Shown in pieces: positions 17,425 through 18,142 of a stretch of 48,005 nucleotides of DNA (its first letter is position 1; each line of letters begins with the position of its first letter). The notes below the pieces were generated by a model. That model was given only the letters and a program-made list of their open reading frames with translations. It was not told where the DNA came from and made no database searches. The DNA is from Candidatus Nomurabacteria bacterium (lineage in GTDB: Bacteria; Patescibacteriota; Minisyncoccia; Phycocordibacterales; UBA9973): assembly GCA_026396015.1 (NCBI GenBank), contig JAPLXP010000007.1, positions 1 to 48,005 of the forward strand, in the 5' to 3' direction. The translations under genes were made by a program, and so were the position numbers.

Positions 17425-18054
17425 TTGAAAATTATGAAAACACAAGTATCTAAAATTCTTTCAGATGATGGAATTATGGTGATTATGGGCTGCATTATTG
17501 CTTTAGTCTCAGTTGTTATCTTTGCTATTTTTTCTAAAAAAAAGAATAAAAAAAATGATTTATGTGCTGAATCAGATAAAAGAAAAGAACTAAATAAGAA
17601 AAATGTTGAATTTGTTGGTTCTATTATTAAGGGCCACCACACCCCGATGAGCGCTGAAAAGCAAAATTACTTTAAAATTCTTTATGCAGAATGGCAGGAG
17701 CTAGAAAATAAGATGTCAGACGAAGCTAGTCCAGAGACCATTAAGAAAATCAAAGAATTTTTTAAAAAAGGAACCAGGCATGAATTTTATTTTCTTAAAG
17801 CAAAAATTTATAGTAATTTACCAGATGGAGGAAAAGAATTAATTTTAAAAGATGTTTTTACCGATCCATTTCCTTCTCTACATGATATGGATGATTGGGC
17901 AATCTGTGAAAAATCTACCATTGTGCTGACATTGAAAAATGTTAGCGTTGAAGATTCTAAAAATTACTTTATTTACATAAAACAGCATTTTGTTAATCAT
18001 AATATCACGACAGGTATTATTATGTTTGATGTTTATAAGATTATTAAACCATGA
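17425..18054 (+). CDS. membrane-anchored hypothetical protein; possible extension through TGA to TAA at 18124-18126
   Basis: Track ORF with one TM helix. It ends in TGA, one of only two TGA stops among the genes I accept. The frame then stays open for 23 codons to a TAA 16 nt before the terminator. Confidence 0.5.
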   Translation: MKIMKTQVSKILSDDGIMVIMGCIIALVSVVIFAIFSKKKNKKNDLCAESDKRKELNKKNVEFVGSIIKGHHTPMSAEKQNYFKILYAEWQELENKMSDEASPETIKKIKEFFKKGTRHEFYFLKAKIYSNLPDGGKELILKDVFTDPFPSLHDMDDWAICEKSTIVLTLKNVSVEDSKNYFIYIKQHFVNHNITTGIIMFDVYKIIKP

Positions 18055-18142
18055 GATCCTGTATTTGATGCCGTAACAAAAGCTTCCTCTGATGTTGCAG
18101 CAGGTAATTTAAAATTTAAAGATTAATTTTGTTTATAAAAAC

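Follow-up and report, generated by a model that had tools for sequence, protein, structure and literature searches.

The window analysed here, a stretch of 48,005 nucleotides, is contig C9 of a 14-contig assembly of 771,649 bp with about 36% GC and an estimated completeness of 98.7%. Coordinates given without a contig label are positions in this stretch. The organism is an uncultured freshwater member of the Paceibacteria/Parcubacteria, within the Candidate Phyla Radiation (CPR), and very probably uses the standard bacterial code. At the locus of interest lies a plus-strand gene for an orphan protein, followed by a stretch of open frame in the same register, a terminator hairpin and, converging from the other side, genes for a pyruvate-kinase-like protein (pyk) and for enolase (eno) (Table 1). 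The starting point was an earlier note on this DNA, which reported that an ORF at 17425-18054 ends at a TGA and that its frame then stays open for 23 codons (DPVF...KFKD) to a TAA at 18124-18126; this description was confirmed on the sequence.

Table 1. Features discussed in the text. Positions are those of the 48,005-nt window; contig labels are added where a feature lies elsewhere in the assembly.
Feature	Position	Strand	Remarks
Gene for the orphan protein	17434-18054	+	predicted membrane-anchored; frame open from TTG 17425; homologues begin at the MKT/MSR position
Stop codon of this gene	18052-18054	+	TGA, context TGA-G
Insert, about 87 nt	18055-18141	+	extra relative to loci L007 and L008, between stop and hairpin; edges placed by eye, +/-1-2 nt
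Open tail, 23 codons plus TAA	18055-18126	+	in frame; G-rich first and A/T-rich third codon positions
Terminator hairpin	18143-18173	both directions	13 pairs between an A-run and a T-run; score from the minus strand
pyk, short pyruvate-kinase-like, 265 aa	18189-18986	-	convergent; synteny in L007; orthologue 89% identical in genome G012
eno	18991-20220	-	next to pyk
Second ORF with a TGA stop	526-687	+	TGA 685-687 overlaps the ATG (684-686) of ORF 684-872; 4-nt ATGA overlap
prfB (RF2)	C2:140743-141642		300 aa
prfA (RF1)	C1:11485-12441

The true start of the gene is likely the ATG at 17434 and not the TTG at 17425, because all four homologues begin there. The predicted protein starts with a single hydrophobic helix at its N-terminus; a Lys-rich linker connects this to a conserved C-terminal domain, in which the motif PFPSLHDMDDWA is invariant. 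Pfam holds no family for it, the only matches being sub-threshold ones to the membrane helix. No match to the protein was found in 40 related genomes, and only four relatives came to light among 5.8 billion proteins; an AlphaFold2 model based on five sequences reached a pLDDT of 47, which is too low to support a search by fold. The identical TGA and tail are present in independent assemblies (L011 and, from another study, the lake-water contigs X3 and X6), which excludes an assembly error. Apart from two substitutions and, at 17586, a 12-nt indel in the Lys-rich linker, the strains show no differences. The listed pieces from runs X8 and X9 reach neither the TGA nor the initial two thirds of the tail. 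Intermediate strains did not turn up, and no RNA data set was listed among the carriers.

The relatives of the protein are informative about where it ends. P0002, from the same species, is 98% identical to it; P0003 and P0004 are 68% and 64% identical to it and 76% identical to each other, and P0005 is 37% identical. All four end within two residues of Pro209, the three divergent ones in YKIK (P0003), YKIA (P0004) and YKVPQ (P0005). At the DNA level, ...YKIK is followed in locus L007 by TGA and, 1 nt later, by the beginning of a homologous terminator hairpin; ...YKIA is followed in L008 by TAA and the same hairpin 1 nt later; and ...VPQ is followed in L009 by TAA. L007 is syntenic with the locus described here, with a convergent pyk (PF00224) and then eno. 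Given that the family tree has the form ((P0003, P0004), flagged protein), P0005, and that the homologues end within two residues of one position, alignment indicates that a stop at this position is ancestral in the family, the TGA itself being shared with L007. The suggestion of the earlier note that the gene may be read through thus finds no echo among its homologues, which at 37-68% identity stop at the position equivalent to the TGA and have no tail.

A further argument of the earlier note concerned the spacing between stop and terminator. It had placed a terminator hairpin after the TAA, and a 13-pair hairpin does begin there, with the TAA 16 nt before it. It had also held that such spacings are roughly 0-25 nt elsewhere in the window, whereas the TGA would leave a gap of 88 nt. 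Across the genome the median gap from stop to hairpin is indeed 20 nt, and 55% of gaps are 25 nt or less, but 28% are 88 nt or more. In addition, the hairpin is common to the flagged gene and the convergent pyk: it lies 15 nt past the pyk stop, and the A-run and T-run at its two sides allow it to act in both directions. A similar hairpin follows pyk in G012. The position of the hairpin therefore needs no nearby stop on the plus strand, and, given the many long gaps elsewhere, the spacing argument is weak. The flagged gene also occupies a variable spot, as the protein family and the tail are missing next to pyk in all 26 genomes of the genus that have pyk, and in G012, the closest of them, a different convergent gene of 463 aa lies opposite pyk. 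As to pyk itself, typical pyruvate kinases are about 470 aa long; several genomes of the genus carry a second frame, of about 470-500 aa, that matches only residues 83-255 of the pyk product.

What distinguishes the locus from L007 and L008 is the insert between stop and hairpin, which contains the open tail. The codon log-odds score of the tail is 7.08, compared with 4.5 +/- 3.6 for windows from real genes; it falls in the top 4.3% of stop-free intergenic windows, and per codon it is the highest of 105 post-stop extensions genome-wide. Judged from its codon use, the tail most probably derives from DNA that codes, or once coded, for protein. Searches for its source returned little: blastn and tblastn found no second copy of the insert in the genome, when 60 genomes of the genus were searched at the DNA level, only its AT-rich end was matched and the GC-richer part was not, no source was present in about 1.3 Mb of loci from relatives, and the tail peptide, written as a degenerate 18-residue pattern, had no exact match in 185,579 species genomes. 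The opposite strand of the insert holds no ORF of 20 aa or more. A small RNA or structured element in the insert was considered and rejected, since Rfam returned only sub-threshold noise and no family, and folding gave a z of -0.03, that is, no structure beyond chance. Given that the only carriers of the insert are near-identical strains, more than 99% identical, there is no variation from which selection on the tail could be measured.

The wider claim of the earlier note was that TGA is hardly used as a stop, for which it had proposed a genome-wide census as the check. We counted stops in a crude way, over ORFs of 100 aa or more that do not overlap, the longest chosen first; these cover 85% of the genome. 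Among 698 such ORFs, 548 end in TAA (78%), 120 in TAG (17%) and 30 in TGA (4.3%), at a GC3 of 0.30; the corresponding counts on contig C9 alone are 31, 7 and 2. The scarcity of TGA is therefore a property of the whole genome. It does not follow from composition: TGA and TAG are equal in base content, and as a plain trinucleotide TGA is the commoner in the genome (30,832 versus 23,075), so that the imbalance of 30 to 120 is real. G accounts for 0.35 of A/G two-fold sites, and the neutral expectation is about a quarter each for TGA and TAG. The share of TGA is uneven along the assembly, at 3 of 236 stops (1.3%) on C2, the largest contig, versus 27 of 462 elsewhere (Fisher p = 0.005). A second stop within three codons follows 13 of the 30 TGA stops and 195 of the 668 TAA and TAG stops, a difference that is not significant (Fisher p = 0.11).

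The same preference is seen in the relatives. In 80-kb samples analysed by the crude census, five genomes of the same genus (GC 0.34-0.42) use TGA for 3-8% and TAG for 15-24% of stops, and five other families of the order (GC 0.42-0.48) use TGA for 12-24% and TAG for 26-39%; TAG exceeded TGA in 13 of 13 sampled relatives of the order. Since the census returned 12-24% TGA in these other families, the method sees TGA stops where they are present. The low use of TGA is a genus-level trait that tracks GC across the order. In bacteria at large, TGA use rises with GC3 (rho = 0.88) while TAA use falls and TAG stays flat at about 20% (Ho and Hurst 2022, PMC9348620; Povolotskaya et al. 2012, PMC3549826), and TGA is generally more frequent than TAG (PMC10471768), being preferred to it once G exceeds about 16% at two-fold sites (PMC3549826). 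The present genome resembles this usual bias of AT-rich bacteria in its 78% TAA, in a TAG share of 17% that is near the usual 20%, and in the rise of TGA with GC among its relatives. It differs, when set against these published trends only, in that TGA is lower than would be predicted for a two-fold G of 0.35, at which it normally exceeds TAG, and in that all 13 relatives likewise have more TAG than TGA.

In addition, the TGA stops that remain behave as stops. Nine or ten of the 30 form ATGA stop/start overlaps with the next gene, an arrangement that makes sense only if TGA terminates and thus marks it as a genuine stop. The second case that the earlier note had called ambiguous is one of these. 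Its TGA, with a TAA two codons on, is where the note placed it, but it is a plain overlap with the following ORF and not ambiguous (Table 1); the note had named the first ORF a ribbon-helix-helix (RHH) protein, and neither ORF gives a significant Pfam match. After TGA stops in general, the next in-frame stop comes at a median of 6.5 codons. Elsewhere, on the minus strand at C7:33611-34025, a 137-aa ORF ends at a TGA and is followed by 124 open, protein-like codons in the same frame; these probably represent a separate gene starting from an internal Met.

Termination at TGA depends on RF2, and loss of this factor was one of the explanations put forward in the earlier note. However, prfB is intact: it forms one uninterrupted frame with the SPF tripeptide (...RISPFNA...) and the GGQ motif (...GGPGGQ...), and its product aligns with solved RF2 chains over domains 2-4 (E = 5.5e-79). 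The solved chains have some 65 residues more in domain 1, strong alignment starting near their residue 100, and because of this shortening the protein scores 336 bits against TIGR00020, below the cut-off of 370. The gene has no programmed +1 frameshift (locus L001:1363-2265), and relatives across the order have an RF2 of the same length. prfA is also present, with the PST tripeptide (PxT type) and its own GGQ motif (GGAGGQ). Of 80 other families of the order, 77 yielded an RF2 orthologue, at 54-68% identity; among public sequences, the nearest ones carry the names Candidatus Paceibacterota, Nomurabacteria or Parcubacteria and reach 87% identity. In the three remaining genomes (G033, G103 and G133, all of this order and 92-99% complete) the RF2 query matched nothing but the RF1 paralogue. 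Samples of 83-120 kb were taken from each of them; there, TGA makes up 6-13% of ORF ends and reading it as sense gains nothing; since their ORFs behave as under code 11, the missing RF2 probably reflects assembly gaps and not loss, and RF2 loss in relatives was dropped as a lead.

A sense reading of TGA, the other proposal of the earlier note, is likewise contradicted. ARAGORN predicts 39 tRNAs and Rfam RF00005 predicts 38, in the same places; the sole tRNA-Trp has the anticodon CCA, and neither program finds a tRNA with anticodon UCA in the 98.7% complete assembly. If TGA is read as sense, the number of ORFs goes from 698 to 720, their median length from 245.5 to 242 aa, essentially unchanged, and coding density only from 0.852 to 0.869. 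Selenocysteine recoding of the UGA found no support either: no SelB scores above the family cut-off, the best match being the GTPase domain of a 404-aa frame that is probably EF-Tu, ARAGORN finds no tRNA-Sec in the whole assembly, and the 89 nt after UGA 18052, where a SECIS hairpin would be expected, fold no better than shuffled sequence (z = -0.03). The view of the earlier note that this is not an ordinary code 4 or code 25 genome is thereby upheld, with RF2 intact, no tRNA-UCA and genes that do not lengthen when TGA is taken as sense. The earlier note had also said what would speak against its proposal, and there the outcome was divided: prfB is intact and the homologues do end at the TGA position, but TGA use still stays below a tenth.

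Two oddities of the tRNA set may be recorded here. Unusual anticodons are predicted for a tRNA-Ile(UAU) and a tRNA-Ser(ACU) (C2:105338-105412 and C2:113780-113865), and a normal tRNA-Ser(GCU) exists alongside the latter. In addition, neither ARAGORN nor the Rfam tRNA model detects a tRNA-Leu(UAA) anywhere in the assembly, although ORFs of 100 aa or more contain about 4,000 TTA codons; this tRNA may be unassembled or contain an intron.

Taken together, the retention of RF2 and the shared end point of the flagged gene and its homologues argue that the genetic code of this organism is ordinary. We consider it very probable that the standard code applies, that TGA 18052-18054 is a genuine, rare stop and that the tail belongs to the 3' untranslated region. 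Under this account, TGA would be a true stop, decoded by the intact RF2 but strongly disfavoured; TAA dominates as expected at a GC3 of 0.30, the order in addition favours TAG over TGA, and roughly a third of the remaining TGA stops would be held in place by the start codon of the next gene in ATGA overlaps. The flagged gene would end at its TGA, and the 23 codons beyond would form part of an untranslated insert ahead of the conserved two-way terminator. The insert itself may be a coding fragment, possibly the last 23 codons of another gene together with its TAA and a few bases, that was inserted just past the stop and fell in frame by chance, as would happen one time in three on the same strand. 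Such an origin of the insert is the simplest account, and the tail is most likely untranslated in essence. The cause of the TGA bias, however, is not explained by this account, and the TGA deficit stands at the unusual end.

The alternative that fares best is functional read-through, in which the near-cognate tRNA-Trp(CCA) would now and then decode UGA-G to yield a selected 232-aa isoform with a 23-residue C-terminal extension. Leaky UGA codons can serve this purpose, the A1 protein of phage Q-beta being a C-terminally extended product of UGA read-through. In E. coli reporters TGA was the leakiest stop, a G at +4 raised read-through and Trp was inserted at TGA, and read-through has been observed across the E. 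coli proteome (PMC11126739). The flagged UGA resembles these cases in its open, coding-like extension and its +4 G; the extension is in frame and is the most coding-like post-stop stretch of the genome, the TGA is the only one of the 30 with a G next to it, and a TAA at the usual distance before the terminator would fit a real gene end. However, it differs from them in that the putative extension is missing in all three divergent homologues, and RF2 is intact. L007 has this TGA too, with the hairpin immediately after it, and the near identity of the tail carriers allows no constraint to be demonstrated. Nor is the context a clue independent of the coding-like tail, since codons begin with G more often than with any other base; any in-frame piece of coding DNA would place a G at +4 about a third of the time. 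Given that this is, moreover, a single case picked after the fact, we regard functional read-through as improbable.

Taken to its full extent, the read-through idea would describe an orphan membrane protein made in two forms, with the UGA-G at 18052 read by tRNA-Trp at a useful rate and the 23-residue tail, derived from inserted coding DNA, acting as a recently born functional extension; the lineage would otherwise shun UGA because it terminates poorly, perhaps through the shortened domain 1 of RF2. We hold this picture to be equally doubtful.

Somewhat less probable still is a recent truncation, in which a former protein of 232 aa had a sense codon at position 210 and a nonsense mutation to TGA cut off its tail. 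Such a coding relic should look coding-like, as the tail does, and stop and tail are identical in all samples. However, chance would have had to place the new stop no more than two codons from the ancestral stop of three other lineages, one of which uses TGA as well, and an earlier loss of that stop would be needed besides the insertion.

By far the weakest is an altered code or codon capture, in which the genome would be shedding its TGA codons before it loses RF2 or reassigns TGA to Trp or Gly: TGA use is certainly low (4.3%, and 1.3% on the largest contig), and an RF2 match is missing in 3 of 80 genomes of the order, but RF2 is intact and conserved, there is no tRNA-UCA, TGA stops persist, ATGA overlaps included, TGA use tracks GC across the order, and the three genomes that lack an RF2 match still end 6-13% of their ORFs in TGA and gain nothing from a sense reading, so that we give this explanation hardly any credence.

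The comparison with known recoded bacteria leads to the same point. In code 4, used by Mollicutes and others, TGA encodes Trp, and in code 25, used by Gracilibacteria and Absconditabacteria, which belong to the same phylum as the present organism, it encodes Gly. Like such bacteria, this organism has a small, AT-rich genome with few TGA stops, and it has code 25 lineages in its own phylum. Unlike them, it keeps an intact RF2, has no tRNA-UCA and no in-frame TGA in its genes, and uses TGA for termination, including in ATGA overlaps.

Stop-codon bias of this kind is already known, and none of the recoding hypotheses passes the tests that define it. Some minor novelty may lie in the order-wide excess of TAG over TGA in Paceibacteria, combined with an RF2 that is conserved but shortened in domain 1, and in the single coding-like, in-frame tail after UGA-G, which offers a cheap test case for read-through. 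The check thus matters mainly as a negative result: in a phylum where changes of the code do occur, the low use of TGA here is no evidence of a new one, and the standard code is the one to use in annotating this Patescibacteria genome.
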